DNA of 64,000 nucleotides. Source: an uncultured Candidatus Actinomarina sp. (GTDB taxonomy: Bacteria; Actinomycetota; Acidimicrobiia; Actinomarinales; Actinomarinaceae). Below the pieces are notes generated by a model. It ran no database searches and was not told the DNA's origin. It was given only the letters and a program-made list of their open reading frames with translations. The translations under genes were made by a program, and so were the position numbers. Of the stretch, positions 3,173 through 53,041 are shown one piece after another. The stretch's first letter is position 1. Each line of letters begins with the position of its first letter. Location: positions 47,086-111,085 of the forward strand of contig CACJJR010000004.1 of the NCBI GenBank assembly GCA_902593795.1. The letters are read 5' to 3'.

Positions 3173-4069
3173 ATGAAAAAAATTGTATATTTAAGCGGCG
3201 GTATTGGAGGTGCTAAGTTTGCAAAAGGATTAAGCAAAATTAAGAATATTAACTTATCAATAATCGTTAATACGGGTGATGATGAATATATACATGGGGT
3301 AGCTCTTTCACCTGACATTGACTCTGTAATTTATGGCTTAGCAAATATAGAAGGAAAATATGGTTGGGGTGTAATAAATGATAAATTCTCCGTAAATAAT
3401 GAGTTGAAAAAATTTTATAATTTAAATTTTATGATTGGTGATAAAGATCTAGCTCTTAATTTATATAGAAATCAAATGTTAAGTGAAGGTTTGAAACTTA
3501 CAGAAATTACAGAATTAATAAAAAATAAATTTAATATTAACTGCGATATCCTTCCAATGTCTGATGATAAAGTAAGTACAAAACTCACTACAAAAAAAGG
3601 TGAAAAATTAAATTTTCAAAATTACTTTGTTGAGAAAAAAGCAAAACCAAGATTGAAAAATGTCGTATATGAAGGATCTAGGAAAGCAAGGGTCTCAAAA
3701 CACCTTTTAGGTATTATCAATCAAAGCGATATTTTGATTATTGGCCCTTCAAATCCAATACTTTCTATTGGTCCTATTCTTTCCTTAAGTGTAATTAATC
3801 AAGCAATTCAAAACCATAATAATGTTGTAGCTATTAGTCCTTTTGTGGGTAAAAAGGCTCTTAAAGGCCCCTCTGTTCAAAACTTCATTGATATGGGATA
3901 CACTCCAGATATACAAGGGTTAAAGAAATACTATAAAAATCGGGTTAATAAATTTTTTGTAAACCATGGCGATTCTGATAACTCTCTGAATGTCTTCGAA
4001 GAACAAATTGTTTTTAAAAATGAAATTGACTCAAAAAATTTAGCTAATAGGATATTGCAAAATGAATGA
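3173..4069 (+). CDS. cofD: 2-phospho-L-lactate (or EPPG) transferase, F420 biosynthesis
   Basis: 298 aa with an N-terminal YLSGGIGGAKF glycine loop and CofD/FbiA-like length and layout. It overlaps cofE by 8 nt. Confidence 0.85.
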   Translation: MKKIVYLSGGIGGAKFAKGLSKIKNINLSIIVNTGDDEYIHGVALSPDIDSVIYGLANIEGKYGWGVINDKFSVNNELKKFYNLNFMIGDKDLALNLYRNQMLSEGLKLTEITELIKNKFNINCDILPMSDDKVSTKLTTKKGEKLNFQNYFVEKKAKPRLKNVVYEGSRKARVSKHLLGIINQSDILIIGPSNPILSIGPILSLSVINQAIQNHNNVVAISPFVGKKALKGPSVQNFIDMGYTPDIQGLKKYYKNRVNKFFVNHGDSDNSLNVFEEQIVFKNEIDSKNLANRILQNE

Positions 4070-4760
4070 AGTAAGAGTGATACCTGTTCAAGGAATTCCA
4101 GAAATTAAAACTGATGATAACCTAGCTGAAATCACATTTGAAGTTTTGAAAAAAAATAAAGTAACTATAGAAAAAAATGACATTTTTGTAGTTACTCAGA
4201 AAATTGTATCTAAAAGCGAGGGTATGGAGAGAGATCTTTCAAAATTTAATCTTGAAGAACTATTGCAAAGCGAATCTAAAAAAATTATAAGAAAAAGAGG
4301 AGATTTGGTTATAGCAAAGACAAACCATGGATTTATTTGTGCAAATGCTGGGATTGATAAGTCAAACGTTAGAAAAAATACAGCCTTACTACTCCCAGAA
4401 GATCCTAATAAATCAGCAAATAAATTTCAAAAAAGATTTGAATCTTTAGCGAATGTACCAATTGCCGTTATTATTTCTGATACATTTGGTAGAGCATGGA
4501 GAAAGGGTCAGGTTAATTTTGCAATTGGCTCATCAGGCATCAACCCTATTGACAGTTATATTGGTAAATTTGACAGTTTTGATAATGAACTTAACGCTAC
4601 AGAAATTGCAGTTATTGATGAGCTAGCAAGCGCTGCAGAGCTAGTAATGAAGAAAACTATTGATATACCTATAGCAATTATTAGAGGAGTTGATTATGAA
4701 AATTCAAAACTTACTGCAAACGAGTTAATAAGAGATGACAATGAAGACTTTTTTCTTTAA
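4062..4760 (+). CDS. cofE: F420-0:gamma-glutamyl ligase, single-domain CofE type
   Basis: 232 aa with a CofE-like core (VVTQKIVSKSEG, ANAGIDKSN, ISDTFGRAWRKGQ). It is co-directional with cofD and overlaps it. Confidence 0.8.
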   Translation: MNEVRVIPVQGIPEIKTDDNLAEITFEVLKKNKVTIEKNDIFVVTQKIVSKSEGMERDLSKFNLEELLQSESKKIIRKRGDLVIAKTNHGFICANAGIDKSNVRKNTALLLPEDPNKSANKFQKRFESLANVPIAVIISDTFGRAWRKGQVNFAIGSSGINPIDSYIGKFDSFDNELNATEIAVIDELASAAELVMKKTIDIPIAIIRGVDYENSKLTANELIRDDNEDFFL

Positions 4761-22769: not shown

Positions 22770-24776
22770 TTATTGTAATTCTTTTACGGCTTTTATGACT
22801 TTTTCAACACTTGGTATAAAAGCATCTTCAAGAACAGGTGCGAAAGGAATATGTGTATTTGGAGGAGTAACCTTAATTATTGGATTATCTAAACTCCAAA
22901 AACCTTTCTCAGCTACTAAAGAAGAAATCTCTGAAGCAATGGATGAGAACGGTACATCTTCTTGCAAAATACACAAGTTAGATGTTTTCTCAACTGAATT
23001 AAGAATTATTTCTTCATCTAAAGGAACGATTGTTCTAATATCAATAATTTCAACAGATAAGCCATCTTTACTTAGCTCTTGAGCAGCCTGTTCAGCAACA
23101 GATACCATGCCAGACCATGTAACAATCGTTAAGTCTGAGCCTTCTTTTACAATTTTACCTTTGCCAATTTCAACCTCATAAAGCCCTAAAGGTACTTCCA
23201 TTTTTAAATCTGGTTTCCTATAAAGTTTTTTGTGTTCTAAATACATAACCGGATTTGGATCATTAACAGCAGCAATCAAGAGACCTTTGGCATCATAAGG
23301 GTTTGATGGGGCCACTACTTTAATTCCAGGATGATGTGCTAATAACGACTCAGGGCTAATGGAGTGAAATGGTCCCGATCTAGTACCGGCTCCAGTTGGG
23401 CCTCTAACTACCATTGGAACAGGCTTTCCTGCTTTCCAATTATATTTTGCTGCTTCGGTTGTTATTTGGTCCAACGCAGGATAAACAAAATCATAAAACT
23501 GAAGTTCTACTATTGGCTTTTTACCCGCAAGAGCAGCTCCAACAGCCGCACCTGTGAAGCCTCCCTCAGATATTGATGTATCAATTACACGAAATGGTCC
23601 ATACTTATTGAAGAGGCCTTTTGTAGCTTTAAATGCACCTTCAAAAACTCCAATATCTTCACCCATCATGAAGACATTTTCATCATTATCCATTAACTCA
23701 TCTAATCCATTAGTGATAGCTTCTATAAAATTCATAGTTTCTTTATTGTTCTCACTGTTTTCTATTAAAGGCGTAGTTCTATCGGCAAACATATCTGACT
23801 CTTCGTTTTTTGGATCTGGATCATCTTGATTTTTTGCCCAATCTATTGTTTCTTTAATTTCAGCTTCTAACTCTTCTGACAGACTGACAAACTGTTCCGT
23901 AGTGAACAAACCTTCTTGTAACAATGCGTCTTCAAACCTTGCTATAGGGTCACGTTTCATCCAAAATTCCCTCACTTCATCATTAACGTATTCAGCAGGG
24001 TCATGACCAGCGTGGCCATAGTGGCGAAAAGTAACTAACTCAATAAGTGACGGACCATTACCATTTCGAGCATTTTCACAAGATTCGTGAATAGCATCGA
24101 TCACTTCATAAATATCATTTCCATCAATTATTCTTGCTGGAATTCCATAACCTGCAGCTCTATCAGCAACATTTGGTGTTCCAAACTCTGTGTCATTAGG
24201 TGAAGAGTATGCAAATTGATTGTTTTGGACTGTAAAGACAACTGGCAAATTAAGAACTGCTGCCATGTTAACGCTTTCATGCCAAGTACCAGTTGCAGTA
24301 GCTCCTTCACCACAGTTAGCAACAGCAACTACACCTGTTCCGCTTTGTTGCGATGCTAAAGCCCAACCGACAGCTACAGGGGCCGAATCTGGTAGCGGAG
24401 ATACAACCATAAGCGTACCTTTGTCAACAACACCAAAGTGACTATTTCCATCTCTACCTTTAGAAGGTCCATCATTTTTACCAAAAAAATTCAAAGCGAT
24501 TTCTTTAAGTGTTACTCCTTTTTTTATTTGAACACCTAGATCTCTGTGCGTTCCACCAAAAATATCTTTCGAATCCATACCCGCTGCAATACCGGCCATA
24601 CATGCTTCTTGACCAATTCCTGGATATACTGCACCACTTAATTGTCCACCTTTGTACATTTTCAGTAATCTATCTTCCAATAATCGTTGGGTTTTCATAG
24701 ATTTATAGATATCCCAGAGAACTTCTTTAGAAAGTGTTGCTGCATATCCTTGTCTTGTTATTTTTTCAATCTGCAT
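22770..24776 (-). CDS. Fused E1 alpha + E1 beta subunits of a heteromeric-type 2-oxoacid (pyruvate or branched-chain) dehydrogenase
   Basis: 668 aa. The alpha-like part runs to about residue 320 (CGEGATATG...NNQFAYS, RHYGHAGHD). An acidic linker follows. The beta-like part starts near residue 347 (MNFIEAITNGLDELM..MGEDIG). Confidence 0.85.
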   Translation of the reverse strand: MQIEKITRQGYAATLSKEVLWDIYKSMKTQRLLEDRLLKMYKGGQLSGAVYPGIGQEACMAGIAAGMDSKDIFGGTHRDLGVQIKKGVTLKEIALNFFGKNDGPSKGRDGNSHFGVVDKGTLMVVSPLPDSAPVAVGWALASQQSGTGVVAVANCGEGATATGTWHESVNMAAVLNLPVVFTVQNNQFAYSSPNDTEFGTPNVADRAAGYGIPARIIDGNDIYEVIDAIHESCENARNGNGPSLIELVTFRHYGHAGHDPAEYVNDEVREFWMKRDPIARFEDALLQEGLFTTEQFVSLSEELEAEIKETIDWAKNQDDPDPKNEESDMFADRTTPLIENSENNKETMNFIEAITNGLDELMDNDENVFMMGEDIGVFEGAFKATKGLFNKYGPFRVIDTSISEGGFTGAAVGAALAGKKPIVELQFYDFVYPALDQITTEAAKYNWKAGKPVPMVVRGPTGAGTRSGPFHSISPESLLAHHPGIKVVAPSNPYDAKGLLIAAVNDPNPVMYLEHKKLYRKPDLKMEVPLGLYEVEIGKGKIVKEGSDLTIVTWSGMVSVAEQAAQELSKDGLSVEIIDIRTIVPLDEEIILNSVEKTSNLCILQEDVPFSSIASEISSLVAEKGFWSLDNPIIKVTPPNTHIPFAPVLEDAFIPSVEKVIKAVKELQ

Positions 24777-24777
24777 A

Positions 24778-26142
24778 TTAATGTAACCCCCTACCGCTTA
24801 AACTCATTAATGATTCGCCAATTGCTTCACTCAAAGTTGGATGTGCATGAATAAATTCTGATGCCTCTTCTGGAAGAGCTTCCCAACCTATCATGTACAT
24901 CAATTCATGTATCATTTCACCCGCAGCTGGACCACATACGCTTGCTCCTACTATTGGGCCGTTTTCTTCTGAGTAAACTTTAACTAAGCCTTCATTTTGA
25001 TTTTGAATCATCGCTCTTCCAATTCCTGCAAAACTATGCTGCGATTGATTGATTTTAATTCCCAAATCTTTTGCTTTATCAGAATTTACTCCAACCTCAG
25101 CCAATTCAGGTCTTGTGTAAACAACATAAGGAATTGCATCATAATTTATTGGGCTATTGTCTCCAGTAGCAATATGGGTAACAGAGCTAATAGCTTCTGC
25201 AAAAGCAACATGAGCTAACTGTGGAGTTCCATCAACAATATCTCCTAAAGCATAAATATTTTCTACTGCTGTTTGTAAAGTCTGTAAATTTGCTTCTACA
25301 AACCCATTATTTATTTTTATTCCTACTTCTTCTAATCCAATATTTTCTGTTAATGGTGCCCTGCCAACTGCAACTAAAACACATTCAAAATTTTCATTGT
25401 CTCCATCAGAGAAATAAACACTCTTATCATTAACTGAATCTACAGATGTACCAAGTTTAAAATTTACACCTCTTTTTGAAAGTTGCTTTCTCAGTTCTCC
25501 TGATGTTCTCTTATCTAAGCCAGGTAATATTTCTTTAGCAAGTTCTACAACAGTAACTTCTGATCCTAAGTCATTTAGTAAACTGGCAAACTCGCATCCA
25601 ATTGCTCCTGCTCCTATTACGCATACTTTATTTGGTGGCTGTTCCCAATTTAAAGCTGAGTCTGATGTTATAACATACTCATTATCAATTTCAATATTAG
25701 GTATTGACCTTGGTTTTGAACCGGTAGCTAAAAGTATAAAGTCAGATTCCAATACTATTTCTTCACCATCTGCTTTTTTAATTAATACATTATTCTTATC
25801 TTTGATTGTCCCCCAGCCCTCCAGAACATTTACTTTTTTAGAATTTAGCAACATTCCAATACCGCTTACGAGGTTATTTATAATTTCAAATCTTTTTTCA
25901 GCTGTCTTTGCCCAATCGATAGTCTTTTCATTTATGTTTATGCCAAAGTCTGATGAGGTTTCGATTTCATGATTTAATTCTGCAACGTGAAGCCAATATT
26001 TTGCAGGTATACAACCCCTGTTGAGACATGTTCCACCAAGAGTATCAGATTCAATTAGAGTGACTTCTAAGTCGAAATTGCTTGCGTAAAGTGCAGCAGC
26101 ATAACCTGCTGGCCCTCCGCCAATAATGGTTAATTTTTTCAA
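24778..26142 (-). CDS. lpd: Dihydrolipoamide dehydrogenase (E3)
   Basis: GGGPAGY FAD loop, redox-active CLNRGCIPAK and C-terminal HAHPTLSE. The track ORF starts at ATG 26211, but GGAAAGAGG followed 4 nt later by TTG at 26142 puts the start just before the FAD loop, so I prefer 26142. Confidence 0.8.
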   Translation of the reverse strand: MKKLTIIGGGPAGYAAALYASNFDLEVTLIESDTLGGTCLNRGCIPAKYWLHVAELNHEIETSSDFGININEKTIDWAKTAEKRFEIINNLVSGIGMLLNSKKVNVLEGWGTIKDKNNVLIKKADGEEIVLESDFILLATGSKPRSIPNIEIDNEYVITSDSALNWEQPPNKVCVIGAGAIGCEFASLLNDLGSEVTVVELAKEILPGLDKRTSGELRKQLSKRGVNFKLGTSVDSVNDKSVYFSDGDNENFECVLVAVGRAPLTENIGLEEVGIKINNGFVEANLQTLQTAVENIYALGDIVDGTPQLAHVAFAEAISSVTHIATGDNSPINYDAIPYVVYTRPELAEVGVNSDKAKDLGIKINQSQHSFAGIGRAMIQNQNEGLVKVYSEENGPIVGASVCGPAAGEMIHELMYMIGWEALPEEASEFIHAHPTLSEAIGESLMSLSGRGLH

Positions 26143-26394
26143 ATTACCTCTTTCCAGACAGGATCTCTGTCTAATCGAGATAATAACTACATTCCTACGT
26201 GGGGTTCCCAAGAAAAATGATAATAGTTATTGTCACTTATAAATTTACTAAAGTTTGGTAAAAGTTCAAAATTAGGAATGTTTTATATTGAACTAGAATG
26301 TAACCATGCAAACAAGACATTTGATAATTGCTTCTCTTTTGACAGGTTTACTAATACTTGCCGCTTTTGGCGTTTGGTTATTAACATATTAAAA

Positions 26395-28676: not shown

Positions 28677-28752
28677 TATCTAATTGTAATTTTTAAATTT
28701 AATTTCGCTAATCAAATTTAACTTGTTTCAAATCGTAATTAACATAGATAAT

Positions 28753-29478
28753 ATGTTAGAAATTAAAAATTTACACGCAGAAGTTGACGGCACTGAAATA
28801 TTAAAGGGTGTCGATCTAAAAATTAACCCCGGAGAAGTTCACGCAATCATGGGGCCAAATGGGTCTGGAAAATCTACCTTAGCAAATGTTGTTATGGGAA
28901 ATCCTGTATATGAGGTTACCAAGGGATCAGTAGTTTTTGAAGGCGAAGATATCACTGAGGAACCAGTAGACAATAGAGCAAAATTAGGAATGTTTCTAGC
29001 ATTTCAATACCCAGAATCTATACCCGGAGTAACAATAGTAAATATGCTTAAAACTGCGCTAACCAATATTGAGGAAACAGAATACACTACCCTCGAACTT
29101 AGACTAAAGGTTGCGGAAGCAATGGAACAGTTAGGCTTGTCTGCAGACTTTGCAGATAGATATCTAAATGAAGGCTTCTCAGGTGGTGAAAGAAAAAGAA
29201 ATGAGATTCTACAACTAGCCGTTCTTGATCCAAAACTTGCTGTTTTAGATGAAACTGATTCTGGATTAGATGTAGATGGTTTGAAAGTGGTTGGTGAAGG
29301 TGTTAGTAAATTAAAAAGTGATGATAAAGGCTATCTAGTTGTAACTCACTATCAGAGACTTTTGGAATATATAAAGCCAGATTTTGTTCACGTTTTTGTC
29401 GATGGAGCAATTGTAGAATCTGGTGGAGTAGAATTGTCTGAAAAGCTTGAAAAAGAAGGATACGAATCATATTTATGA
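28753..29478 (+). CDS. sufC: Fe-S cluster assembly ATPase SufC (copy 1)
   Basis: Walker A GPNGSGKST, signature FSGGERKR and Walker B LAVLDETDSGLD. The ATG at 28753 (MLEIKNL) is preferred over the TTG at 28723 given in the track. Confidence 0.85.
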   Translation: MLEIKNLHAEVDGTEILKGVDLKINPGEVHAIMGPNGSGKSTLANVVMGNPVYEVTKGSVVFEGEDITEEPVDNRAKLGMFLAFQYPESIPGVTIVNMLKTALTNIEETEYTTLELRLKVAEAMEQLGLSADFADRYLNEGFSGGERKRNEILQLAVLDPKLAVLDETDSGLDVDGLKVVGEGVSKLKSDDKGYLVVTHYQRLLEYIKPDFVHVFVDGAIVESGGVELSEKLEKEGYESYL

Positions 29479-30695
29479 TAAAAGTAAGTGATTTAAAAAA
29501 AGATTTTCCAATTTTCGAAAGAGAAATAAATGGAAAGAGGCTTACATATTTAGACTCTGGTGCAACATCACAAAAACCAAGTGTTGTAATAAATGAAATG
29601 TCTAATGTCTATGCAAATATGAACGCAAATGTCCATAGAGGTACTTATGTCCTATCATCAGAAACAACGACTAAATATGAGGATGTTAGAAACAAATTAA
29701 AAGATTTTATAAACGCATACTCTGCAGATGAAATAATCTTTACAAAAGGATGTACAGAGGGGTTTAATTTTTTAGCGAATTCAATATGCAAAGAATTAAG
29801 TCCCGGTGATGAAATTATCCTTTCAGAAATTGAGCATCATGCAAATATTATTCCATGGCAAATGGCTGCTGAAAAATATAGCTTAAAAATCAATTATATA
29901 AATATCACAGAATCTTTTGATTTAGACCTTGATCATTTTGAAAACCTACTAAGTGCAAAAACAAAAGTCGTTTCAATAGTTGGTGAGTCAAATATGTCCG
30001 GGATGCTTCCTGATATACAAAAACTAAATTCACTTATTAAGGAAAAAACCGATGCCATTTATATTGTTGATGGTGCTCAACTAGTCCCACATAGAAAAAT
30101 TGATGTACAAGAACTTGGAATAGACTTTATTTGTGTTTCTGGTCATAAAATGCTTGGTCCGACCGGTATAGGTGTAGTTTGGGGTAGAAAAGAATTATTA
30201 GAAAAATTAGATCCAGTTTATGGTGGCGGAGATATGATAGAAGAAGTTTTTTACGATAGTGCAACTTGGGCACCAGTTCCGCATAAATTTGAAGCTGGTA
30301 CGCCTCCGTATGTTGAAGCAATTGGCTTAGGAGCTGCAGTTGATTATTTATCTAACTTGAATATGAAAAATGTAGAAAAACACTCTGATGATCTTCGAGA
30401 ATATGCAAAGAAAAAATTAGAAAATATAAAAGGCTTGAATGTTGTTCATACAAACTCTAAATTAGCTGGTTGTACTTTTGCAATGAGTGTTAATGGTGTT
30501 CACGCAACAGATATTTCATTAATGTTGGACACATTTGGAGTAGCAGTTCGTGCAGGCCATCACTGTGTTCAGCCATTTCATAGAAAACTGAACCTTGATG
30601 CTACATTCAGAGCTACAGGTTATATTTATAATGACGAAGAAGATTTTGACATTCTAAGCGATGCGATTGAAGAAAGTATAAAAATATTAACTTAA
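29475..30695 (+). CDS. sufS: Cysteine desulfurase SufS
   Basis: 406 aa with the PLP-lysine region SGHKMLGPTG and catalytic loop RAGHHCVQP. It overlaps sufC by 4 nt. Confidence 0.9.
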   Translation: MIKVSDLKKDFPIFEREINGKRLTYLDSGATSQKPSVVINEMSNVYANMNANVHRGTYVLSSETTTKYEDVRNKLKDFINAYSADEIIFTKGCTEGFNFLANSICKELSPGDEIILSEIEHHANIIPWQMAAEKYSLKINYINITESFDLDLDHFENLLSAKTKVVSIVGESNMSGMLPDIQKLNSLIKEKTDAIYIVDGAQLVPHRKIDVQELGIDFICVSGHKMLGPTGIGVVWGRKELLEKLDPVYGGGDMIEEVFYDSATWAPVPHKFEAGTPPYVEAIGLGAAVDYLSNLNMKNVEKHSDDLREYAKKKLENIKGLNVVHTNSKLAGCTFAMSVNGVHATDISLMLDTFGVAVRAGHHCVQPFHRKLNLDATFRATGYIYNDEEDFDILSDAIEESIKILT

Positions 30696-30696
30696 A

Positions 30697-31110
30697 ATGA
30701 GTATTGAAGAAAAAGTTGAAGACTACAAAAAAACTCTTGCAATGTTTCCAAATCCGCAAGAAAAATATCAATATTTAATCGAACAAGCAAAGAAAAACGA
30801 AGACTTTCCGCAAGAATTGAGGATTGATGAGTTTAAAGTTAATGGCTGTCAAAGTCAGGTTTGGTTGGTTCCAGAAGAAAAGAAAAATAAATTATATTTT
30901 AAAAGTGATTCAGATGCTTTAATTGCAAAAGGGTTGGTAACTTTAATTGCATCAATCTATTCAAATGAAGCTCCTGAAGATATTGCAAATTCCAAAATTG
31001 ACCTTATGGAAGAATTTGAACTTGGAGTGATCTTAAGTCCTGCTAGAAGAAATGGAGCTTTTAGTATGTTAAAAACTATTAAAGAATTTTCCCAAAAATT
31101 AGCTAATTGA
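30697..31110 (+). CDS. sufE: SufE-family sulfur acceptor
   Basis: 137 aa with the conserved VNGCQSQVWL active-site cysteine region. It starts 1 nt after the sufS stop. Confidence 0.8.
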   Translation: MSIEEKVEDYKKTLAMFPNPQEKYQYLIEQAKKNEDFPQELRIDEFKVNGCQSQVWLVPEEKKNKLYFKSDSDALIAKGLVTLIASIYSNEAPEDIANSKIDLMEEFELGVILSPARRNGAFSMLKTIKEFSQKLAN

Positions 31111-38815: not shown

Positions 38816-39505
38816 CTAATATTGAGTGTATCCACCAGAATCGACTTCTTCAATAAGTTCTTTAGTTCCTGTCTTTGCAATTTCACCATTTACTACAATA
38901 TGCACCTTGTCTACATCTAAGTAGTTTAAAATCCTGCTGTAGTGAGTAACAATAAGGTATGCAGTTGTGTCATTTCTATTTTCATTAATCAGCTCTGCAA
39001 CAGTTTTTATAGCGTCAATATCTAGTCCTGAATCTATTTCATCTAGTAACGCTACCTTTGGACTTTTAAGTGCTAATTGAAAAAGCTCACACCTCTTTTT
39101 TTCCCCACCTGAAAAATCTACATTTACTTCACGATCAAGAAATTCTTTTACTTTAAAACTCTCAGCAAGGCTAGTAATTTCATCATCAGATAAGTCTGGA
39201 TTTATAATTTTAGAAAATTCGAGAAGCGTTACTCCAGGCAGTCCAACGGGATATTGAAAAGACTGAAAAACTCCCATTTCTGATCTTTCGTTTTGTTGTT
39301 TTTTACTTATTTCTTCTTCATCTATAAAAATTGAACCTTTGCTTTTATAAACTTCATTTCCCATTACAACATGACATAGTGTTGATTTACCTGAACCATT
39401 GGGCCCCATTACCGCATGGAGTTCACCAGGCTTAATTTCTAAATCAACTCCCTTAAGGATTTCTACTTCACCTATTGACGCTTTTAAGTTTTCAATCTTA
39501 AGCAT
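38816..39505 (-). CDS. sufC: Fe-S cluster assembly ATPase SufC (copy 2)
   Basis: 229 aa with GPNGSGKST, FSGGEKKR and VALLDEIDSGLD. It is the last gene of the sufB-sufD-Rieske-sufC operon. Confidence 0.85.
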   Translation of the reverse strand: MLKIENLKASIGEVEILKGVDLEIKPGELHAVMGPNGSGKSTLCHVVMGNEVYKSKGSIFIDEEEISKKQQNERSEMGVFQSFQYPVGLPGVTLLEFSKIINPDLSDDEITSLAESFKVKEFLDREVNVDFSGGEKKRCELFQLALKSPKVALLDEIDSGLDIDAIKTVAELINENRNDTTAYLIVTHYSRILNYLDVDKVHIVVNGEIAKTGTKELIEEVDSGGYTQY

Positions 39506-39815
39506 CAGTACCCATTTCTACATATATATAACCATCAATTATTTCAGTCTTATAGGTATTAACGCTCTTTGTAGCGGGTAAAGTAACAGCTTCACCAGTT
39601 TTTAAATCGAACTCGGCACCGTGAAGAGGGCATTCAACTTTGCAATCATATACTTCCCCTTCAGATAAGCTAGCTTCAGCATGAGAACACATATCATCAA
39701 TGGCATAAAATTGCCCTTCACAATTAAATAAAGCAATCTGCTGAGTATTGGTTTCAAATAAAGCCGATGAGTTTTCAGCAATATCTGTACTTTTAATTGT
39801 TTTTACTTTTTCCAA
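39498..39815 (-). CDS. Rieske [2Fe-2S] ferredoxin-like protein
   Basis: 105 aa with CSHAEASL (C-x-H) and CPLHGAEF (C-x2-H) ligand boxes. Confidence 0.85.
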   Translation of the reverse strand: MEKVKTIKSTDIAENSSALFETNTQQIALFNCEGQFYAIDDMCSHAEASLSEGEVYDCKVECPLHGAEFDLKTGEAVTLPATKSVNTYKTEIIDGYIYVEMGTDA

Positions 39816-39816
39816 T

Positions 39817-40974
39817 TTAGTTACTTTCGATTATGTTCATATATTTTTTTTCAATAATATTAGAAACTTTGTCATGAATAATTTCCCACTTAGAATCATT
39901 TATTACTTCATTAAAAAAGCCTTTGATGAGTAATTTATCTGCCTCAACTTTTTCAATACCTCTAGCCATAACATAGTGATAAACACTTTCTTCAATTGGA
40001 CCTACTGAAGAACCATGACTGCAGATTACATCATCACACAATATTTCTAGATTAGGCACAGATTGAGCGGTAGCTTCTTCGCTGAGTAGTATATTTCTAT
40101 TTTCTTGGTGAGATTCTGTTTTTTCTGCTCCCTCAGCTATGTGTATTGTTCCAGTAAATATGGAACTACTTTCGTCACCTAATACACCTTTAGTAATCAT
40201 ATTTGATGATGTATTTTTGCCTAGATGATTTACAAATACTCTGTTGTCGTGAATTTGCTTTTCTTCACCAAAATAAATTCCATCTAAACTAAATTCTGAA
40301 CCATTGCCTAAAAGATCTATATCCATTCTTGAACGAGATAATCCTGCTCCTGTGCTTATATTATGAATAGTTAAATTAGAGTTTCTTTCAAGCTGGGCAT
40401 ATATTGAATTTACGATATTGATTTCTTTTGTAGAAGTTACAGAAAGTATTATTTCTAAATTTGAATTATCATTTAGGAAAATTTCAATAATTGGATAAAT
40501 GTTTCCAATGACTAATTCATCAAAATTTAAATATAATTTTCCAGATTTGTTCTTTTCTACACTAACTCCGATGTAAGGAATAGCGTTGTCATCTGATTGG
40601 AAATTCACTGAAAAATATTGTTCGTTATCTTCTTTTACATTTAATTGAAAACCACCCGTTACTTTTTCAAATTGTTCAATATTAAATTTATCAAACGGTC
40701 TTTTAATTGACTCTTTGATTAGCGGTTTTTTGATTTCATTGATGTCTATGATTTCAATATGATTAGGCTCTGAATTTATTTCATAAGTAAAACAATTTGA
40801 ATCAATATCAAATGTTTTAGAAGAATTTATGTCAGTGGCTTTGCCAATTTCGATGTCATTAAGTTCGAATAATTTTTTTCCAAGATACTTCCAGTCTTCA
40901 TCTTTAGCGGTAATGTTTGCAAACTCTTTTGATGAAAGTGGCTTTAACTTTTTTTCAAATAATTTATTGTTCAA
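39817..40974 (-). CDS. sufD: Fe-S cluster assembly protein SufD
   Basis: 385 aa with a SufBD-type C-terminal beta-helix region. It lies between sufB and the Rieske/sufC genes. Confidence 0.8.
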   Translation of the reverse strand: MNNKLFEKKLKPLSSKEFANITAKDEDWKYLGKKLFELNDIEIGKATDINSSKTFDIDSNCFTYEINSEPNHIEIIDINEIKKPLIKESIKRPFDKFNIEQFEKVTGGFQLNVKEDNEQYFSVNFQSDDNAIPYIGVSVEKNKSGKLYLNFDELVIGNIYPIIEIFLNDNSNLEIILSVTSTKEINIVNSIYAQLERNSNLTIHNISTGAGLSRSRMDIDLLGNGSEFSLDGIYFGEEKQIHDNRVFVNHLGKNTSSNMITKGVLGDESSSIFTGTIHIAEGAEKTESHQENRNILLSEEATAQSVPNLEILCDDVICSHGSSVGPIEESVYHYVMARGIEKVEADKLLIKGFFNEVINDSKWEIIHDKVSNIIEKKYMNIIESN

Positions 40975-40988
40975 TTTTTACCTAATCA

Positions 40989-42398
40989 TTAACCAACGGC
41001 GCCAGCTTCTATCATGTTTAATTCAATCAGTTGATTGAATTCCATGGCATATTCCATTGGTAACGTTTTAGTAAATTCTTCTACAAACCCTGCGACAATC
41101 ATAGAAGTTGCTTCAGATTCAGAAAGTCCTCTGCTCATGAGATAGAAAAGTTGATCTTCTCCAACTTTTGAAACTGTTGCCTCATGACCAATAACTGCTG
41201 ATGATTCTTCGATCTCCATATAAGGATAAGTGTCTGATCTTGATTCATCATCAAGAATCAACGCATCACATCTTACAAAACTTTTTGCTGTTTCTGCACC
41301 GTCTTCAACTCTGACTAATCCTCTGTATGCACCTCTTCCACCACCTTTTGAAACTGACTTTGATGTAATCAAAGAAGTTGTATCGGGAGCGAGATGAACC
41401 ATTTTTGCTCCTGTATCTTGATGCTGGCCTGAGTTTGCAAAAGCTACAGATAAAACTTCACCATGAGCACCTGGTTCCATTAAGTAAACGGAAGGGTATT
41501 TAACCGTTAAACCTGAACCAAGATTTGCATCAATCCATTCCATTGTTGCATTTCCATAAGCTTGTGCTCTTTTTGTGACTAGGTTATAAACATCATTTGA
41601 CCAGTTTTGGATTGTAGTGTACCTACACGTCCCAGATGGTTTGACAACTATCTCTACAACTGCGGAGTGTAAAGCATCCGTTGTATAAACAGGTGCTGAA
41701 CAACCTTCAATGTAGTGTACAGAAGCTCCTTCATCAACAAGAATTAATGTTCTCTCAAATTGACCCATATTTTCAGCATTAATTCTAAAATATGCTTGCA
41801 AAGGATCTTCGACATGTACACCTTTTGGAACATAAATGAATGATCCGCCTGACCAAACAGCTGAATTTAGTGCAGCAAACTTATTATCACCTGGAGGAAT
41901 AACCGTCCCAAAATATTCTTGAACTAATTCCGGATACTCTCTAACTGCAGTATCCATATCACAAAACAATACACCTAATTTTTCTAAATCTTCTCTATTT
42001 TTGTGGTAAACAACTTCGCTTTCGTATTGTGCCGTAACACCAGCTAGATAGGTTCTTTCAGCCTCAGGTATACCAAGCTTTTCATAAGTTTGTTTTATTT
42101 CTTCTGGTACTTCATCCCATGAGTCTGCTTGATTTTCAGTAGGTTTTATGTAGTAATAGATATCATCAAAATCTAATTGACTTAATTTTTCTTTTGCAAC
42201 CCACTCTGGCATAGGCTTATCAAGAAATCTTTTATACGCTTTAAGTCTGAAATCAAGCATCCACTTCGGCTCTTCCTTAATTTCAGACATTTTTCTGATA
42301 ATGTCTTCATTCAAACCTTTTTCAGGTTTAAAAACATTCTTCTCAGGATCAGACCAGCCTAAAGAATACTTACCTAAATCAATATCAACATTTGCCAT
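40989..42398 (-). CDS. sufB: Fe-S cluster assembly scaffold SufB
   Basis: 469 aa with highly SufB-like segments ([46 protein letters not shown]). Confidence 0.9.
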
Positions 42399-47357: not shown

Positions 47358-48875
47358 ATGAACGATGTGTTAGATAAAAAAATCGAAAATGTTTTAGACC
47401 AAGCTGATCGAATGTTTATTGCGACTAGCGTTGGCGGCAACTCATCAGGGGCTTCTGTATTTTTCAGTAGAGATGGTGAAGATTTAGTATTTTTTACCTT
47501 CCACCCTACTCGTAAAGCAGAACAAATTAGATTAAATCCACGAGTCCATGTAGTAATTTGGCCTAAAGGACAAGAAGGTATTGAAGGATTACAAATTGAT
47601 GGTGAATGCTACAAAATTAAAGATGAAGACGAAAAGAAAAAAGCCTATGAACTTGTATTAAACACAACTGAAGCATTTAAAGAGTTTATGGAAGATGAGT
47701 TTTTAATTAAAAATGACGTTGTTGGTTATTACAGAGTTAAGCCAACAACTATAAAATATGTTAACTTTTTCCAAGAAGAAAAGTTTGAATGGAAAACATA
47801 TCCAGCAAACAAAACTTCGGCAGTCAAAATGGCATTTAAGCTTGGGTTAAAAAGAATTGGACTATGGTTAAGGACTATTCGTGCTCCGTTTTTAACTGCT
47901 ACTTTTGCTCCAATTTTAATTGGCGCAGCAGTTGCCTGGAATGACTTAAAAGAAGCTGGTCTAGATTCAAGTTGGTCATGGAGAATGTTTTGGCTAGTTC
48001 TTGGTGGAGCGTCATTAGCTCAGGTTGCAACAAACTCATCTAATGATTATTTTGATCACACTTCAAATGCAGATGAAATAAACAAAGTAGCAAGTCCATT
48101 TAATGGTGGTAGTCGAGTTATACAAGTTGGCCTAATGACACCTGGACAAGTGCTGTTAACAGCGCTAGTTAGTATTACTGGAACTGTTGCAATAGGTCTG
48201 TATCTAAATCAACAAGTAAGTGGTTCATTTTTTGGCAACACTCCAATTTTATGGACAGGAATAATTGGAACATTCTTGGCCCTTGGTTATACGGGTGACC
48301 CGGTAAGGCTTGGTTATAAAGGTTTTGGAGAAATTGCAATTGCACTTGGTTTTGGTCCAGTTATGGTAATGGGAGCTCATTATGTATTAACTGATCCAAT
48401 ACACCAAAATTTAGTTTCAGAATGGAATTGGATTGAGGCATTAATTGCATCTGTTCCCATTGCTATTCTTGTAATGCTTATTGTATGGATTAATCAGTTC
48501 CAAGATGCTCCTTCAGATGCTGCAATAGGTAAAAATACATGGGTTGTCAGAACTGCAGAACAAGGCGAATGGATGAAGTTAGAAAAACCTATGAGGCTAT
48601 ATAAACAATTTATGATTGAAGCATTTGTTGCTGTAGCTTTTGTTGGTGCTTTGAGTTTCTTTACAGATTACGGCACTGTCTATGCTTTCATGGCGTTGCT
48701 CCCCTTGGTATTAGTATGGAAAGCTTTCAAAATGGCAGATGAGTGGATGGTGAAATGGAATAATCCAGAGGCTGATCGCCAAAAAGTTCCTTATGAACTG
48801 CTTCTAGTAAACGTATCTACAATAGGGATTCATTTCCTTACTGGTATTTTGCTAGCAGTAGCATATATTCTGTAA
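47358..48875 (+). CDS. menA: Fusion of a PNPOx-like split-barrel flavin/deazaflavin-binding domain with a MenA-type (UbiA-superfamily) prenyltransferase
   Basis: 505 aa in a single frame. Residues 1 to about 137 resemble split beta-barrel PNPOx-like proteins. Residues from about 166 are polytopic, with the Asp-rich motifs N-D-Y-F-D (229-233) and FQDAPSDAAIGKNT typical of MenA. Confidence 0.8.
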   Translation: MNDVLDKKIENVLDQADRMFIATSVGGNSSGASVFFSRDGEDLVFFTFHPTRKAEQIRLNPRVHVVIWPKGQEGIEGLQIDGECYKIKDEDEKKKAYELVLNTTEAFKEFMEDEFLIKNDVVGYYRVKPTTIKYVNFFQEEKFEWKTYPANKTSAVKMAFKLGLKRIGLWLRTIRAPFLTATFAPILIGAAVAWNDLKEAGLDSSWSWRMFWLVLGGASLAQVATNSSNDYFDHTSNADEINKVASPFNGGSRVIQVGLMTPGQVLLTALVSITGTVAIGLYLNQQVSGSFFGNTPILWTGIIGTFLALGYTGDPVRLGYKGFGEIAIALGFGPVMVMGAHYVLTDPIHQNLVSEWNWIEALIASVPIAILVMLIVWINQFQDAPSDAAIGKNTWVVRTAEQGEWMKLEKPMRLYKQFMIEAFVAVAFVGALSFFTDYGTVYAFMALLPLVLVWKAFKMADEWMVKWNNPEADRQKVPYELLLVNVSTIGIHFLTGILLAVAYIL

Positions 48876-49499
48876 TTGGCTGAAAAAGCTAACTTTTCAA
48901 ACATATACAAGTTCTATGATTTAATCAATTCTGTTATAACTCTTGGATTTGATAAGTCATGGAGAAGTAAAGCTAGTAGTCATGTAACTGGAACAAGAGT
49001 ATTAGATCTTGGAAGTGGAACTGGTGCTGCTTTTCAACAATTACAAAATTTTGATGTAACAGCTGTTGATCCTGATGAGAAAATGCTAGAGCTTAATGAA
49101 TTTTCAAATAAAGTTATTGGTGGTGCTGAAAATCTCCCCTTTCCAGACAACTCATTCGATAGTATTTATTGTGCTTTTGTTTGGAGAAATATAAATGAAC
49201 CAAAAAAAGGTATGGATGAGGTTTATAGAGTTTTACGACCAGGTGGAAAATTTATTCTTCTTGATATGAACAGACCTAAAAATAAATTTCTAAAAGCTAT
49301 TCATAAGATAGGTACATTTAAAGTGACCTTATTAATTGGGTTGTTAACTTTCAATCTCAAAGAGTATAGATTTCTTCATAATTCATTAGATAAATATCCT
49401 CAACCTGAGGAATATTTTCAAACCCATCCTTTCGAAAATTGCATTATAGAAAGAATGGGTTTGTTTGACTTTGTCTATGAAGCTGTGTTTGAAAAATAA
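48876..49499 (+). CDS. Class I SAM-dependent methyltransferase, UbiE/MenG-like
   Basis: 207 aa with SAM motif I VLDLGSGTGAA and motif LRPGGKFILLD. The TTG start directly follows the menA-fusion stop. Confidence 0.7.
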   Translation: MAEKANFSNIYKFYDLINSVITLGFDKSWRSKASSHVTGTRVLDLGSGTGAAFQQLQNFDVTAVDPDEKMLELNEFSNKVIGGAENLPFPDNSFDSIYCAFVWRNINEPKKGMDEVYRVLRPGGKFILLDMNRPKNKFLKAIHKIGTFKVTLLIGLLTFNLKEYRFLHNSLDKYPQPEEYFQTHPFENCIIERMGLFDFVYEAVFEK

Positions 49500-49534: not shown

Positions 49535-50143
49535 TTATCGGCTTTGTAAAGCTAAAGCTGTAAGTAGCTGGCCTACTTGATCTTGTGGAAGGTTTCCAGT
49601 TCTTCTTGCCACAACATTTAAATCTTTGTCTAAAAACACCCAGTAAGGAAATGCATTTAATCCATAAGCAGTTGCAATTTCTTTATCAAGATCGTAAAGC
49701 TGCGTCTCTGACCATCCCTCATTTGCTAACCAATCATGTGGAGGATAGTTATCTCTAGCTCTATCAATTGATGTTGCAATTGCTATTAATTCAATACCGT
49801 CCGGCACTCCAATTAAATCAACATACTCTTGTACTACTGGAACTTCTTGCTGACAATAGCCACACCAGTGGGCAAGAAAAATTAAAGCTTTTGCATTTCC
49901 ATTTTTTTCAATCGTAACTATTTCAGAGTTTTCGTTTGGTGCAGAAAAAGTTGGAGCTGCGAGTCCTCTAGCAATATTATCATCGTTTTCAGAAGCAAAC
50001 ACTGGAAGTAAATCTCCATTTATTGTGGTTTCTCCCTCTGGCAAATTACCATCTAATGGTTCATCAACAAGAGTAACGCCTATAGCAACAGCAAGTCCGA
50101 TAGCAAGAACCACACCACCAGCAATAATAAAATTTTTATTCAA
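49535..50143 (-). CDS. Membrane-anchored thioredoxin-fold thiol:disulfide oxidoreductase (TlpA/ResA/BdbD-like)
   Basis: 202 aa with an N-terminal anchor and the active site WCGYC. Confidence 0.75.
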   Translation of the reverse strand: MNKNFIIAGGVVLAIGLAVAIGVTLVDEPLDGNLPEGETTINGDLLPVFASENDDNIARGLAAPTFSAPNENSEIVTIEKNGNAKALIFLAHWCGYCQQEVPVVQEYVDLIGVPDGIELIAIATSIDRARDNYPPHDWLANEGWSETQLYDLDKEIATAYGLNAFPYWVFLDKDLNVVARRTGNLPQDQVGQLLTALALQSR

Positions 50144-50654
50144 CTATTTCCTTCCCCGATAAATCATAATACAGCAGGGCTAAAAATATAGTCAAAAAAC
50201 CTGTACTAGCCATAACTGGAATTGAAATAAATCCCAAGATATCGACATATTTAAGATTACATGGAACATCTAATGCGCATGAACCACCACCTCCTCCACC
50301 ATTTTGGAGAAATATATGATAAATCCCAACACCAACACCAGCAAGACTTATGTATCCAGCACGTATAAATCTCTTGTTAAACAAACCAATAATAAGAATT
50401 AATGCAATTGGATACATTAAATACCTTTGATACCAACAAAATTTACATGGTATAAAACCAACAACTTCTGAATATACTAAGCTCCCAATTGAACAAAATA
50501 CTGCAACACTTGTGGCAAAATTATAAAACTGATCATTAATTATTTTAGAAAATCTTTTTTTAGTAAAGATTAAAAACAATATAGACAAGCTGATAGCCCA
50601 AGCAACAAAAGTAAAGAAGCCAAATAAAGTATTAAAAAAAACTATTAAGTCCAT
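50136..50654 (-). CDS. DsbB-family disulfide bond formation protein, BdbC type
   Basis: 172 aa. FIPCKFCWYQRYLMYP and CALDVPCNLKY match my recollection of the two Cys pairs of Bacillus BdbC. It overlaps the downstream thioredoxin-like gene by 8 nt. Confidence 0.8.
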   Translation of the reverse strand: MDLIVFFNTLFGFFTFVAWAISLSILFLIFTKKRFSKIINDQFYNFATSVAVFCSIGSLVYSEVVGFIPCKFCWYQRYLMYPIALILIIGLFNKRFIRAGYISLAGVGVGIYHIFLQNGGGGGGSCALDVPCNLKYVDILGFISIPVMASTGFLTIFLALLYYDLSGKEIVE

Positions 50655-50741: not shown

Positions 50742-51401
50742 TTAGACTTTTTCTCCTGACTTGATTCTTGCCATTCCAAGTACCAATACACCAAGACCGA
50801 CTTTGTTAATTATGTCAGCAATTGTATAAAGGACTTCTCTAACAGCGTCAAAGTCTCCTGCTACTGGAGCTAGATAGCCCAAAGGATAGATTATCCAACC
50901 AACAAGAATGAGATTTTTAATTTTCTCAAACTGATCAGCTTCCGCAGCTTTGAGTCCTGCACCTTCTGCTTGAAGATTTCTCATCAAGTATATGTATGCA
51001 GCCATAGCTACTACAAATCCAACCCAGTAAGCATCACTGCCTGCAGCAGATGTCTCACCATAGTAACCGCCACCAATCATCACGACAGCAGCTAATCCCC
51101 AGTTTCTAACTTTTTCGTTATACTCTGCACCTGAAGATGTTACGGCAAGTACCTCAACAAACATTAATGGTACTGTTAGGATCCAGTCGACATATCTTAA
51201 GCCTGTATCATAATCTCCACCAGCCCATGAGCCAGTCATTTTGTTATAGTGATACCAAGCTATTCCTGTCACAAGAGCGGAGATATACACTCCTCTTCTG
51301 TGCTTAGGATCTACTTCTCTTGATGATGCTAGTAAAAATACTGTTCCAGCGAGCATGCCCACTGTTGCTACCATAAAGAGTCTGTAAGTAAGTTCAGCCA
51401 T
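50742..51401 (-). CDS. Microbial rhodopsin, proteorhodopsin/xanthorhodopsin-like outward proton pump (DTE motif)
   Basis: 219 aa with seven hydrophobic helices. RYVDWILTVPLMFVE gives D72/T76/E83, equivalent to PR D97/T101/E108. M80 is at the spectral tuning position. ADIINK gives D196 and the Schiff-base lysine K200. His51 lies in AWYHY. AAGGAG Shine-Dalgarno. Confidence 0.9.
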   Translation of the reverse strand: MAELTYRLFMVATVGMLAGTVFLLASSREVDPKHRRGVYISALVTGIAWYHYNKMTGSWAGGDYDTGLRYVDWILTVPLMFVEVLAVTSSGAEYNEKVRNWGLAAVVMIGGGYYGETSAAGSDAYWVGFVVAMAAYIYLMRNLQAEGAGLKAAEADQFEKIKNLILVGWIIYPLGYLAPVAGDFDAVREVLYTIADIINKVGLGVLVLGMARIKSGEKV

Positions 51402-51523: not shown

Positions 51524-53041
51524 CTACAAACTAGTATGAATGCCCAATGATTCATTGCTCCATTTTTCTAGATAGGGTTTTAAATTAAACTTTTTAGAAG
51601 TTGAGTCTGAAGTCATATATCTAATTTTGCCATAAATGCTTCTCTCAGGCCCCCATGCTCTATCGTATCTACCAAGAATCCAAAATACACCAGAATAGGA
51701 ATTTGGATCTCTTCCATCTAAAGCATATCTATCATTAAGAGTAATCATATATGAGAGTGCTATTTGTGGATTTGGTGTCCATTCGAGTATTTTCTTGCCC
51801 CAAAGCATTCTTAAATAGTTCTGAATTATTCCTTGTGTCCGCAGTTGATTTTGAGCTGCATTCCAAATCTCATCATGAGTTTGCGAATAAGTAAGTTCAT
51901 CAAGAGAATATATATGTTCTCGTTCATCAGAAGAATGATCAGTTAAAGTTTTAATTGCCCATTCAGGCAGACTTGAGTATTGGTCATAGTTAGCTCTTCT
52001 TACACAAGTATGATACCCAAGCTCTCTCCAAGTAATTAATTCATCCATAAAACTTTCAAAATTTTCTGTACTTCCCCACCATCCTTCTCTTCTGCCTACC
52101 ATTTTTGGATCAATTGACTCTAAAGTCCATGATTCCAAATTAGATATTTTTTCAAAAACTTCATGTGTTGATATTTGGCCAGAGTGAAAATACGGTGATA
52201 ATTGACTGCTAGCCTCTTTTGAAGGATTACTACTGAACTTTGCGTAATCTTCATAACCATTATCAATAAATTTATTGAGTTGCTTTAAAGCATTTGAGTA
52301 TCCACCATTTATTGAGCTAATCTCTACCGTTTTGTCGATGTTTAGATTTTGAAGAAAGTCGTCTATATTTTGATCTTTAAAATTATATGGTTTCCATTTT
52401 TCTTGAACCGTTTTTATTTGAGATTGATCGAATTTCTTATTTAATAATTCTAAAGGATTTTTATGAGGTGTCTCAATAATAAAATCCTCTAAGTTTTTAT
52501 GTAAATACCTTCTAAAGTCATGAGCTCTAACATATTCTTTTTCTGAAAGTCGGATAGGTACAAGTCCATTAGAATCAACAAGTTCATATCTTGAGTCAAT
52601 ATCACCAGAGGCTTTCGCAGTCATTTGGGGAACAAAATATGTTGGATAATCATCAGTAATGACAACTGATGCATTTTTTGCAATTTCATTAAGCAGTCCT
52701 TCTGATTCTCCTGCAGACTGCTCGACAAAAGGGTAATAATGCGCATTTGTGCAAGAAATCATTTCATCAATTTCTTGCATGCCCTCAAGAGTAAATTTGT
52801 GAAAACGAATGCTAGACATTGGATAGTCAAGAATTAATGGTTCTAGAATCAATAATGGTTGAGATAATTGGTTTGCCCATTCAACAGCACGTTGTAATGC
52901 AAAATTATACCCTACTCTTTTAAAAGCAATCATCCAATAAATCACATACTGTGTTTCAGTTAGTGACTCCGGATTAATGTCCTTAAGAGTGGTTACTCGG
53001 GTTAAGGGAACTTTTACCATACGTAAATATTTTAAATTCAA
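51524..53041 (-). CDS. phr: Class II CPD photolyase (deoxyribodipyrimidine photo-lyase)
   Basis: The C-terminal NYLRMLWGKKILEWT...LNDRYALDGRDPNSYSGVFW...YGKIRYM matches the class II photolyase FAD-binding region. The start may be ATG 53020 rather than TTG 53041. Confidence 0.85.
   Translation of the reverse strand: MNLKYLRMVKVPLTRVTTLKDINPESLTETQYVIYWMIAFKRVGYNFALQRAVEWANQLSQPLLILEPLILDYPMSSIRFHKFTLEGMQEIDEMISCTNAHYYPFVEQSAGESEGLLNEIAKNASVVITDDYPTYFVPQMTAKASGDIDSRYELVDSNGLVPIRLSEKEYVRAHDFRRYLHKNLEDFIIETPHKNPLELLNKKFDQSQIKTVQEKWKPYNFKDQNIDDFLQNLNIDKTVEISSINGGYSNALKQLNKFIDNGYEDYAKFSSNPSKEASSQLSPYFHSGQISTHEVFEKISNLESWTLESIDPKMVGRREGWWGSTENFESFMDELITWRELGYHTCVRRANYDQYSSLPEWAIKTLTDHSSDEREHIYSLDELTYSQTHDEIWNAAQNQLRTQGIIQNYLRMLWGKKILEWTPNPQIALSYMITLNDRYALDGRDPNSYSGVFWILGRYDRAWGPERSIYGKIRYMTSDSTSKKFNLKPYLEKWSNESLGIHTSL

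Follow-up and report, generated by a model that had tools for sequence, protein, structure and literature searches.

What does a split beta-barrel of the PNPOx type do at the front of a membrane prenyltransferase? The question is raised by a single gene in a 64,000-nucleotide stretch of contig CACJJR010000004.1, from an uncultured Candidatus Actinomarina sp. (Actinomarinales, OCS155; assembly GCA_902593795.1); the whole of this stretch is called the window below. An earlier note, made from the letters of the window, had described the gene as a PNPOx-like split barrel joined to a complete MenA-type enzyme, and had proposed that the fusion could couple a flavin- or F420-dependent redox step to prenylation. 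We found that Ca. Actinomarina makes one polypeptide in which a split-barrel domain is followed by a MenA-clade prenyltransferase. The reading that we favor, at a probability of about one half, is that this protein is a bifunctional naphthoquinol prenyltransferase of menaquinone synthesis whose fused flavin domain keeps the head group reduced.

The fusion is not peculiar to this contig. Across 85 independent loci, the open reading frame (ORF) runs uninterrupted from residue 10 or earlier to residue 495 or later in 82, with neither a stop nor a frameshift at the junction, and the other three loci end at contig edges. Intact loci include more than 40 single-amplified and metagenome-assembled genomes (SAGs and MAGs) of Actinomarina as well as the complete chromosomes CP070638 (Fidelibacterota), CP070646 (Gammaproteobacteria), and CM137749 (Calditrichota). 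The protein encoded in the window is 96% identical to copies in several Actinomarina single-cell genomes, and the G+C content of its gene (about 0.3-0.39) is similar to that of the neighboring genes.

Nor is the architecture the near-unique oddity for which the earlier note had taken it. Relatives are encoded in at least 569 species genomes (one genome per species), and the two domains occur together in more than 100 clusters at 90% identity. Their hosts are spread over Actinomarina and other Actinomycetota, Draconibacterium (Bacteroidota), Fidelibacterota/Marinimicrobia, Calditrichota, KSB1 (Zhuqueibacter), Gammaproteobacteria (Arenicellales and the Olavius Gamma 3 symbiont), and marine Anaerolineales; one cluster (P0199) includes a protein, HKZ42626.1, that is annotated as coming from a 'Candidatus Hodarchaeales archaeon' (Asgard) MAG. 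Identity to the Actinomarina protein is 48-62% in most other phyla, 74% in another actinomycetotal copy (L048), and 70% in the copies from Draconibacterium MAGs (L043 and L044; 10001-11515). This last value implies horizontal transfer between phyla and points to a recent event. The neighbors of the Draconibacterium copies are unrelated (an ornithine/diaminopimelate decarboxylase, a glycosyltransferase, and a Sua5 homologue). Databases list the fusion as 'UbiA family prenyltransferase', an annotation that conceals the second domain, or, at JGI, as 'DHNA octaprenyltransferase / NimA-like FMN-containing flavoprotein'. A full-text literature search found no paper on a PNPOx-UbiA/MenA fusion and no characterized MenA with such a domain, as the earlier note had supposed. 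That note had also raised the possibility of a common architecture already assigned a non-redox role; common it is, but no role, redox or other, has been assigned to it. We regard the fusion as a real, widespread, and uncharacterized variant of a known enzyme.

The C-terminal domain matches UbiA (PF01040) over residues 184-459 with 84.1 bits, against a gathering score of 34.2. The two Asp-rich motifs in which the earlier note had recognized a complete UbiA-fold enzyme are conserved: in a conserved-column analysis of 36 fusion sequences from several phyla, N229-D230-x-x-D233-H234 and N379, F381, D383, and D387 are all invariant. The first motif aligns with NDYGD and the second with NNLRDINSD of E. 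coli MenA (b3930; TIGR00751/PRK06080). Profile alignment with hhalign covered the whole of E. coli MenA (probability 99%, E 9e-18, 302 columns), whereas the controls gave a probability of 0.5% for E. coli UbiA and of 50%, over just 96 columns, for CyoE. The homology to MenA is end to end over residues 163-505, and the two proteins also share a conserved Arg-containing loop after the first motif, nine transmembrane helices, and an associated UbiE/MenG-type gene. However, E. coli MenA has no 147-residue split barrel, and it lacks a C-terminal motif that is conserved in the fusion family (W463...D473-R-x-x-x-P478-Y479...N485...H492).

Among NCBIfam prenyltransferase models, only those of MenA type matched, each below its curated cutoff. 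The best sequence match in the Protein Data Bank (PDB) is UBIAD1 (8djk, E 5e-6), and Foldseek returned digeranylgeranylglyceryl phosphate synthase 6m31, 7bpu, UBIAD1 8djk, and AfUbiA 4tq4. Haem O synthase, 4-hydroxybenzoate prenyltransferase, and MqnP were ruled out as identities of the domain by the hhalign controls and by the lack of an NCBIfam match. Judged by these comparisons, the domain sits in the MenA/UBIAD1 clade; the MenA assignment of the earlier note stands at that level, and we do not call the protein a MenA equivalog. To our knowledge, all characterized members of this clade prenylate 1,4-naphthoquinol head groups.

The N-terminal domain is a PNPOx-like split barrel, as first suspected. 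PNPOx_N (PF01243) matches residues 5-96 with 38.8 bits (42 bits for the isolated domain), above its gathering score of 28.1, and AlphaFold2 folds residues 18-147 into a beta-barrel with predicted local distance difference test (pLDDT) values of 83-95. The fold is that of PdxH, general stress protein 26 (COG3871), NimA-like, and PF01243 proteins, with Foldseek template modeling (TM) scores of up to 0.85 (3db0 0.85, 3ec6 0.83, and 2i02 0.77) and a probability of 1.00 for 2i02, 3db0, 3ec6, and 1dnl. Such proteins are normally soluble stand-alone dimers, whereas the subfamily described here occurs essentially only in fusion with MenA-clade enzymes. A phmmer search of 1.84 billion representative proteins with the N-domain gave just 64 matches at E<=1e-3, and every strong one was a full-length fusion or a fragment of one; no close stand-alone homologue was present among these representatives, and the nearest true stand-alone split barrels are about 30% identical. 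When the Actinomarina protein is compared with distant members, identity is 62% in the N-domain, 51% in the UbiA domain, and 34% in the linker region (residues 151-175), and 22 columns of the N-domain are invariant. Its conservation exceeds that of the catalytic domain, and close stand-alone relatives are lacking; the N-domain is therefore a fusion-specific subfamily under strong purifying selection and not a decaying appendage.

One invariant motif suggests what it might bind. R52, K53, A54, Q56, and I57 are invariant in 36 of the 36 aligned sequences, and TRKAEQI of the fusion lines up with SRKAHQI of E. coli PdxH, for which structures carrying flavin mononucleotide (FMN) exist (1dnl/1g76). 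We take this motif of PdxH to be its flavin-phosphate site. The likeness extends over S/T-R-K-A-x-Q-I; nothing in the fusion corresponds to the C-terminal, substrate-binding part of PdxH. A flavin-type site in the N-domain is plausible on this alignment. Hidden Markov models and PDB profiles failed to separate FMN, flavin adenine dinucleotide (FAD), F420, and haem as its cofactor: FMN (1dnl), FAD (2hq9), F420 (3f7e/1rfe), and haem (3tgv) proteins all match at similarly weak E values. Since a single highly conserved site works in many phyla, a universally available cofactor such as FMN is favored; our first guess would be FMN, with F420 possible in Actinomarina.

AlphaFold2, run with a 36-sequence alignment, modeled the fusion protein with a mean pLDDT of 90.2 and a predicted TM score (pTM) of 0.84. 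In the model the barrel is followed by a juxtamembrane helix (residues 155-173) and then by nine long helices, and the junction between barrel and prenyltransferase is predicted with high confidence. MenA homology starts at residue 163/164, so that the linker measures about 16 residues (148-163) and not the 30 or so first estimated. Loops on the N-domain side of the modeled helices hold 16 Lys and Arg residues and those on the opposite side none. Both Asp-rich loops lie on the N-domain side, and the N-domain has no signal peptide. This charge distribution and the shared side place the N-domain, in the model, in the cytoplasm next to the catalytic face, where the earlier note had expected it. 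The high pTM and the confident junction suggest that the two domains are held in a fixed arrangement, and the predicted geometry fits a coupled redox step.

The gene that follows links the fusion to a pathway. Immediately after the stop codon of the fusion, with a gap of zero as originally described, begins a UbiE/MenG-like S-adenosylmethionine (SAM) methyltransferase gene that is probably co-transcribed with it. Its product, of the UbiE/COQ5 family, matches PF01209 (Ubie_methyltran) with 99.6 bits against 20.1 and contains the SAM motif VLDLGSGTG; its score with TIGR01934 is 131.9 bits, under the cutoff of 158.35. Of 41 Actinomarina-type loci, 39 have a UbiE/MenG-like gene directly after the fusion. 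Among 39 distant loci, it is adjacent downstream in five (L047, L049, L059, L065, and L071) and lies 563 nt upstream in a sixth, all six being Marinimicrobia/Fidelibacterota-like. When the ORFs within ±6 kb of the fusion were clustered over the 85 loci, the UbiE-like methyltransferase was the sole neighbor that recurred across phyla; this association connects the fusion with the final two steps of menaquinone synthesis.

We propose that the nine-helix C-domain transfers a polyprenyl chain onto its head group, a 1,4-naphthoquinol that is most likely 1,4-dihydroxy-2-naphthoate (DHNA), and that prenylation would take place at the two cytoplasm-facing Asp-rich loops. The split barrel beside this active site would bind a flavin-type cofactor and act as a dedicated head-group oxidoreductase, keeping the naphthoquinone ring in the quinol state, which both steps require, or returning it there, for prenylation, for methylation by MenG, or for both. 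The product would then be handed to the UbiE/MenG-like enzyme for C-methylation. What we infer here is the aromatic substrate, the binding of a cofactor, which way the redox step runs, and where its electrons come from. A need for the quinol has a precedent: according to PMC5299476, citing Fatihi et al. 2015, NdbB/NDC1 must reduce demethylphylloquinone before MenG can methylate it. NdbB of Synechocystis and NDC1 of Arabidopsis, as flavoenzymes that reduce a prenylated demethyl-naphthoquinone ahead of MenG, would be functional analogues of the barrel (PMC5299476). They differ from it in their unrelated fold (type II NAD(P)H dehydrogenase) and in being separate proteins that act in trans, and we found no homology between them and the N-domain. 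UBIAD1, which makes menaquinone-4 in humans and other animals, offers a second precedent, as its reaction depends on a naphthoquinone in the quinol state and it requires menadiol. It has the MenA-clade fold of the fusion, but it is a eukaryotic protein of the endoplasmic reticulum and Golgi with no fused flavoprotein domain, and it draws on cellular reductants.

Several observations weigh against a housekeeping, redox-coupled MenA. Enzymes of the PNPOx family usually work as oxidases or as F420H2-dependent reductases and not as NAD(P)H-quinone reductases, which leaves the electron donor unexplained. The C-domain is just 24% identical to E. coli MenA and misses the curated cutoffs of the MenA equivalog models TIGR00751 and NF004749-54 (77.9 bits against 102.15 for TIGR00751, 109.8 against 264 for NF004751, and lower scores for the others), so its aromatic acceptor could differ from DHNA. 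Outside Actinomarina and Marinimicrobia the methyltransferase is not a neighbor (33 of the 39 distant loci). In the 64-kb window, and around the fusion in the phyla that were examined, no further men or mqn gene turned up; a radical-SAM gene near a Fidelibacterota copy is neither MqnC nor MqnE. Actinomarina is absent among the 120 listed matches of a low-GC DNA pattern for the MenB motif (GQTGP[KR]VGSFDGG), though the MenB of actinobacteria may have another motif. Divergent fused variants of 466-521 residues (P0197, P0199, P0211, and P0222), with N-domains 28-36% identical, have lost the R52-K53 motif and kept NDYxD and NxFQDxxxD. In these most divergent variants the N-domain may, to judge from this loss, not bind a phosphorylated flavin, which with the prenyltransferase motifs intact speaks for a non-flavin or structural role in some lineages. 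Finally, phyla that carry the fusion also contain unfused MenA beside MenB. In Neomarinimicrobiota NAT74 (L109:2178-3883), an ORF with the MenB motif (2178-3002) is immediately followed by an unfused canonical MenA, which shares 36% identity with E. coli MenA and just 26% with the fusion, and canonical MenA relatives are also present in several Marinimicrobia, Calditrichia, and Anaerolineae MAGs. It may follow that the fusion is not 'the' MenA but a paralogue that has a role of its own.

One form that such a paralogue could take is a UBIAD1-like salvage or repair enzyme, which would reduce oxidized or exogenous naphthoquinone (oxidized DHNA, 1,4-naphthoquinone, and menadione being candidate substrates) and then prenylate the quinol. 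Of the alternatives it is the most probable, though we consider it unlikely. The best solved relative of the C-domain is UBIAD1, an enzyme that prenylates menadiol. Canonical MenA beside MenB in the same phyla (the L109 Neomarinimicrobiota locus, Calditrichia, Anaerolineae) is also what it would lead one to expect, as are a gene that moved between phyla (the 70% identity of the Draconibacterium copies), the lack of a conserved men-gene neighborhood, and the lack of upstream men or mqn genes in the window. Actinomarinales are, moreover, heavily streamlined and have several auxotrophies (PMC7771536). On the other hand, this same streamlining makes a paralogue less expected, and ordinary de novo synthesis would account just as well for the compact operon that the fusion forms with a MenG-type methyltransferase. 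Among the matches listed, no genome has both canonical MenA and the fusion; this non-overlap is compatible with replacement of one by the other and is no proof of it. A related and somewhat more doubtful scenario is that the barrel reduces oxidized or scavenged head groups (again oxidized DHNA, 1,4-naphthoquinone, or menadione) at the active site itself, which would make the prenyltransferase self-sufficient in oxic water, with F420H2 as a possible driver of the step in Actinomarina. If that were true, genome-streamlined plankton and other lineages could build menaquinone by salvage, and an unrecognized, widespread 'reduce-then-prenylate/methylate' step would exist in bacterial vitamin K2 synthesis; driven by F420H2, it would link the F420 pool of Actinomarina to quinone biogenesis.

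The earlier note had drawn a specific link to F420, in which the N-domain would be an F420H2-dependent quinone reductase of the FDOR/PPOX class, Ddn-like and fed by the F420 that cofD and cofE help to make, and would reduce the naphthoquinone where it is synthesized. Both genes are encoded in the window, as it had stated, and score above their curated cutoffs; on that basis F420 is available in this organism. The F420 pathway is present in all Ca. Actinomarinales, together with several F420-dependent oxidoreductases and a putative nuo cluster of F420H2-dehydrogenase type (PMC7771536). Across 21 N-domains, the F420 models TIGR03618 and TIGR03666 come out slightly ahead of pdxH (best E values 7.6e-10, 9.8e-9, and 3.8e-7, respectively). 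Some mycobacterial FDORs are membrane-associated and reduce menaquinone. However, although the N-domain belongs to the same superfamily as these enzymes (Ddn/FDOR-A; FDOR-B Rv1155 and Rv2061), its scores lie 3- to 7-fold under the cutoffs of the PPOX-class models (20.8 bits against 79.05 for TIGR03618, 16.3 against 84.9 for TIGR03666, and 17.7 against 125.3 for TIGR03667, all for the window protein). The match is about as good as that to PdxH, whose model TIGR00558 gives 17.5-20.2 bits against a cutoff of 180 in an alignment confined to its N-terminal half, and the PDB profile matches mix proteins of all four cofactors. No mycobacterial FDOR is known to be fused to a prenyltransferase. The N-domain is, furthermore, about 62% identical in Marinimicrobia, Calditrichota, KSB1, Bacteroidota, and Gammaproteobacteria, groups in which F420 synthesis is not known to be general, and the fusion is spread far beyond the phyla in which F420 is known to be common. 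These comparisons do not support the specific link, and an F420-dependent N-domain seems doubtful to us.

About equally doubtful, or a shade more so, is a non-redox N-domain, serving as a ligand-binding, chaperone, or dimerization module that holds a planar aromatic substrate or haem or that pairs two prenyltransferases. Split barrels are obligate dimers, haem-binding barrels (5bnc, 6m0a, 9bl1, and 6vna) are among the Foldseek matches, the distant fused variants keep the domain after losing R52-K53 with their prenyltransferase motifs intact, and a reductase or electron donor is not evident in the gene neighborhood. Set against this are the PdxH-like motif and the 22 columns that are invariant across phyla in the core family, in a domain that outconserves the catalytic one; conservation of this kind is what one typically sees at a cofactor or active site, and less so in a scaffold. 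The best Pfam match is the FMN-dependent PNPOx_N, and no conserved His stands out as a candidate axial ligand, H49 of the window protein being Asn in most members.

An artefact of assembly or gene calling (a chimeric contig, or a stop or frameshift that was overlooked) is effectively refuted: the many short N-domain-only proteins in metagenome gene catalogues, which might seem to speak for it, come from short or low-coverage contigs, with frameshifted or fragmented genes around them in L085 (coverage 0.33) and L086 (coverage 2.3) and a fragment-like N-domain protein on the L087 contig of just 1.5 kb, whereas the fusion is a single ORF in 82 of the 85 loci with a confidently modeled junction.

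A naphthoquinol prenyltransferase with its own reducing domain would matter beyond this organism. Most Gram-positive bacteria, and many anaerobic or marine ones, respire with menaquinone, and MenA is an antibacterial drug target. The reduction step carried out by NdbB/NDC1 was long overlooked in plants and cyanobacteria, and an equivalent is not known for most bacteria. Should the fused domain provide such a reduction, the fusion would be a 'Rosetta stone' that points to a component still missing from bacterial vitamin K2 synthesis, and a simple one-polypeptide model for the coupling of soluble redox chemistry to an intramembrane prenyltransferase. Its hosts include very abundant ocean plankton (Actinomarina, Marinimicrobia, and marine Anaerolineales), and if it is a salvage paralogue instead, it would have a bearing on quinone cross-feeding in the ocean.

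The positions of the fusion, of its domains and motifs, and of the genes discussed with it are collected in Table 1.

Table 1. Coordinates of the fusion gene, its parts, and the genes discussed with it, counted from the first letter of the window.
Feature	Position	Strand	Residues and remarks	Basis
Fusion ORF	47358..48875	+	505 aa; ATG start, TAA stop at 48873-48875	
PNPOx-type split beta-barrel, N-terminal, predicted cytoplasmic	47358..47798	+	aa 1-147	Pfam, AlphaFold2, Foldseek, conservation
T-R52-K53-A-E-Q56-I57 motif, candidate flavin-phosphate site	47508..47528	+	aa 51-57	Alignment
Linker	47799..47846	+	aa 148-163; least conserved segment	
MenA-clade UbiA-fold domain, nine transmembrane helices, with stop codon	47847..48875	+	aa 164-505	Pfam, NCBIfam, hhalign
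First Asp-rich motif, N229-D-Y-F-D233-H234	48042..48059	+	Cytoplasmic end of transmembrane helix 2	Alignment
Second Asp-rich motif, N379-Q-F-Q-D383-A-P-S-D387	48492..48518	+	Cytoplasmic end of transmembrane helix 6	Alignment
UbiE/MenG-like SAM methyltransferase	48876..49499	+	207 aa; TTG start	PF01209
Thioredoxin-fold ResA-like gene	49535-50143	-		NF002854, E 1.7e-9
DsbB/BdbC-like disulfide oxidoreductase	50136-50654	-		NF002849, 82.3 bits, under cutoff of 124
cofD	3173-4069 (within 3173..4760)	+		TIGR01819, 259.1 bits vs 257.45
cofE	4062-4760	+		TIGR01916, 217 bits vs 180.65

Apart from the methyltransferase, the neighbors of the fusion differ between lineages. In Calditrichota-type loci (L001, L050, L052, L056, L057, L076, and L079), pntAA-pntAB-pntB follow the fusion on the same strand, and these genes for a proton-translocating NAD(P) transhydrogenase are a possible hint of an NADPH link in that lineage only. 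A dihaem cytochrome c gene lies just upstream in three gammaproteobacterial loci (L066, L070, and L081, including the Olavius Gamma 3 symbiont), and in L066 and L070 a large NosZ-like ORF lies downstream; both calls were made by eye from sequence motifs. An aminotransferase and a histidyl-tRNA synthetase gene are found near the fusion in Anaerolineales. We judged none of the neighbors in these three lineages to be informative. A scan with Rfam upstream of the fusion, for example for an FMN riboswitch, returned nothing but one tRNA, and a promoter and terminator scan did no better than on shuffled sequence.

Convergent with the fusion-methyltransferase operon are the overlapping ResA-like and DsbB/BdbC-like genes, a pair that is kept beside the fusion in 41 Actinomarina-type loci. 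DsbB-type enzymes use membrane quinone, and actinobacteria usually employ VKOR instead of DsbB. A functional link between this pair and the fusion is only suggestive. Beyond it lie, also on the minus strand, a gene for a 219-residue rhodopsin-like membrane protein (50742-51401) with no NCBIfam match, whose homologue on L085 matches the Bac_rhodopsin Pfam family, and, adjoining it, a class II (phr2-type) photolyase gene (51524-53041; 357 bits, under the cutoff of 550).

The window holds further fused genes. A 542-residue LipB-LipA fusion (19863-21491, minus strand), with an octanoyltransferase at residues 3-211 (NF010925, 163.6 bits against 155) and a lipoyl synthase at residues 263-540 (TIGR00510, 353 against 310), would be a bifunctional lipoylation enzyme and lies beside 2-oxoacid dehydrogenase genes. 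Among these is a 668-residue fusion of the E1 alpha (residues 6-341) and E1 beta (residues 348-667) subunits of a pyruvate/2-oxoacid dehydrogenase (22770-24776, minus strand), flanked by an E2 gene after it (21488-22765) and an E3 gene before it (24778-26211). Gene fusions seem to be frequent in this streamlined genome.

The window also encodes two separate Suf gene clusters for Fe-S assembly, each with its own SufC: sufC-sufS-sufE at 28723-31110 on the plus strand, and sufB-sufD-sufC, with a Rieske-type ferredoxin gene (39498-39815) between sufD and sufC, at 38816-42398 on the minus strand. Finally, a 988-residue protein (14966-17932, plus strand) carries a SpoIID/LytB domain (residues 359-592) between repeated short segments that match peptidoglycan-hydrolase and peptidoglycan-binding models and a His-Xaa-Ser repeat model, an unusual protein for a non-sporulating planktonic actinobacterium.

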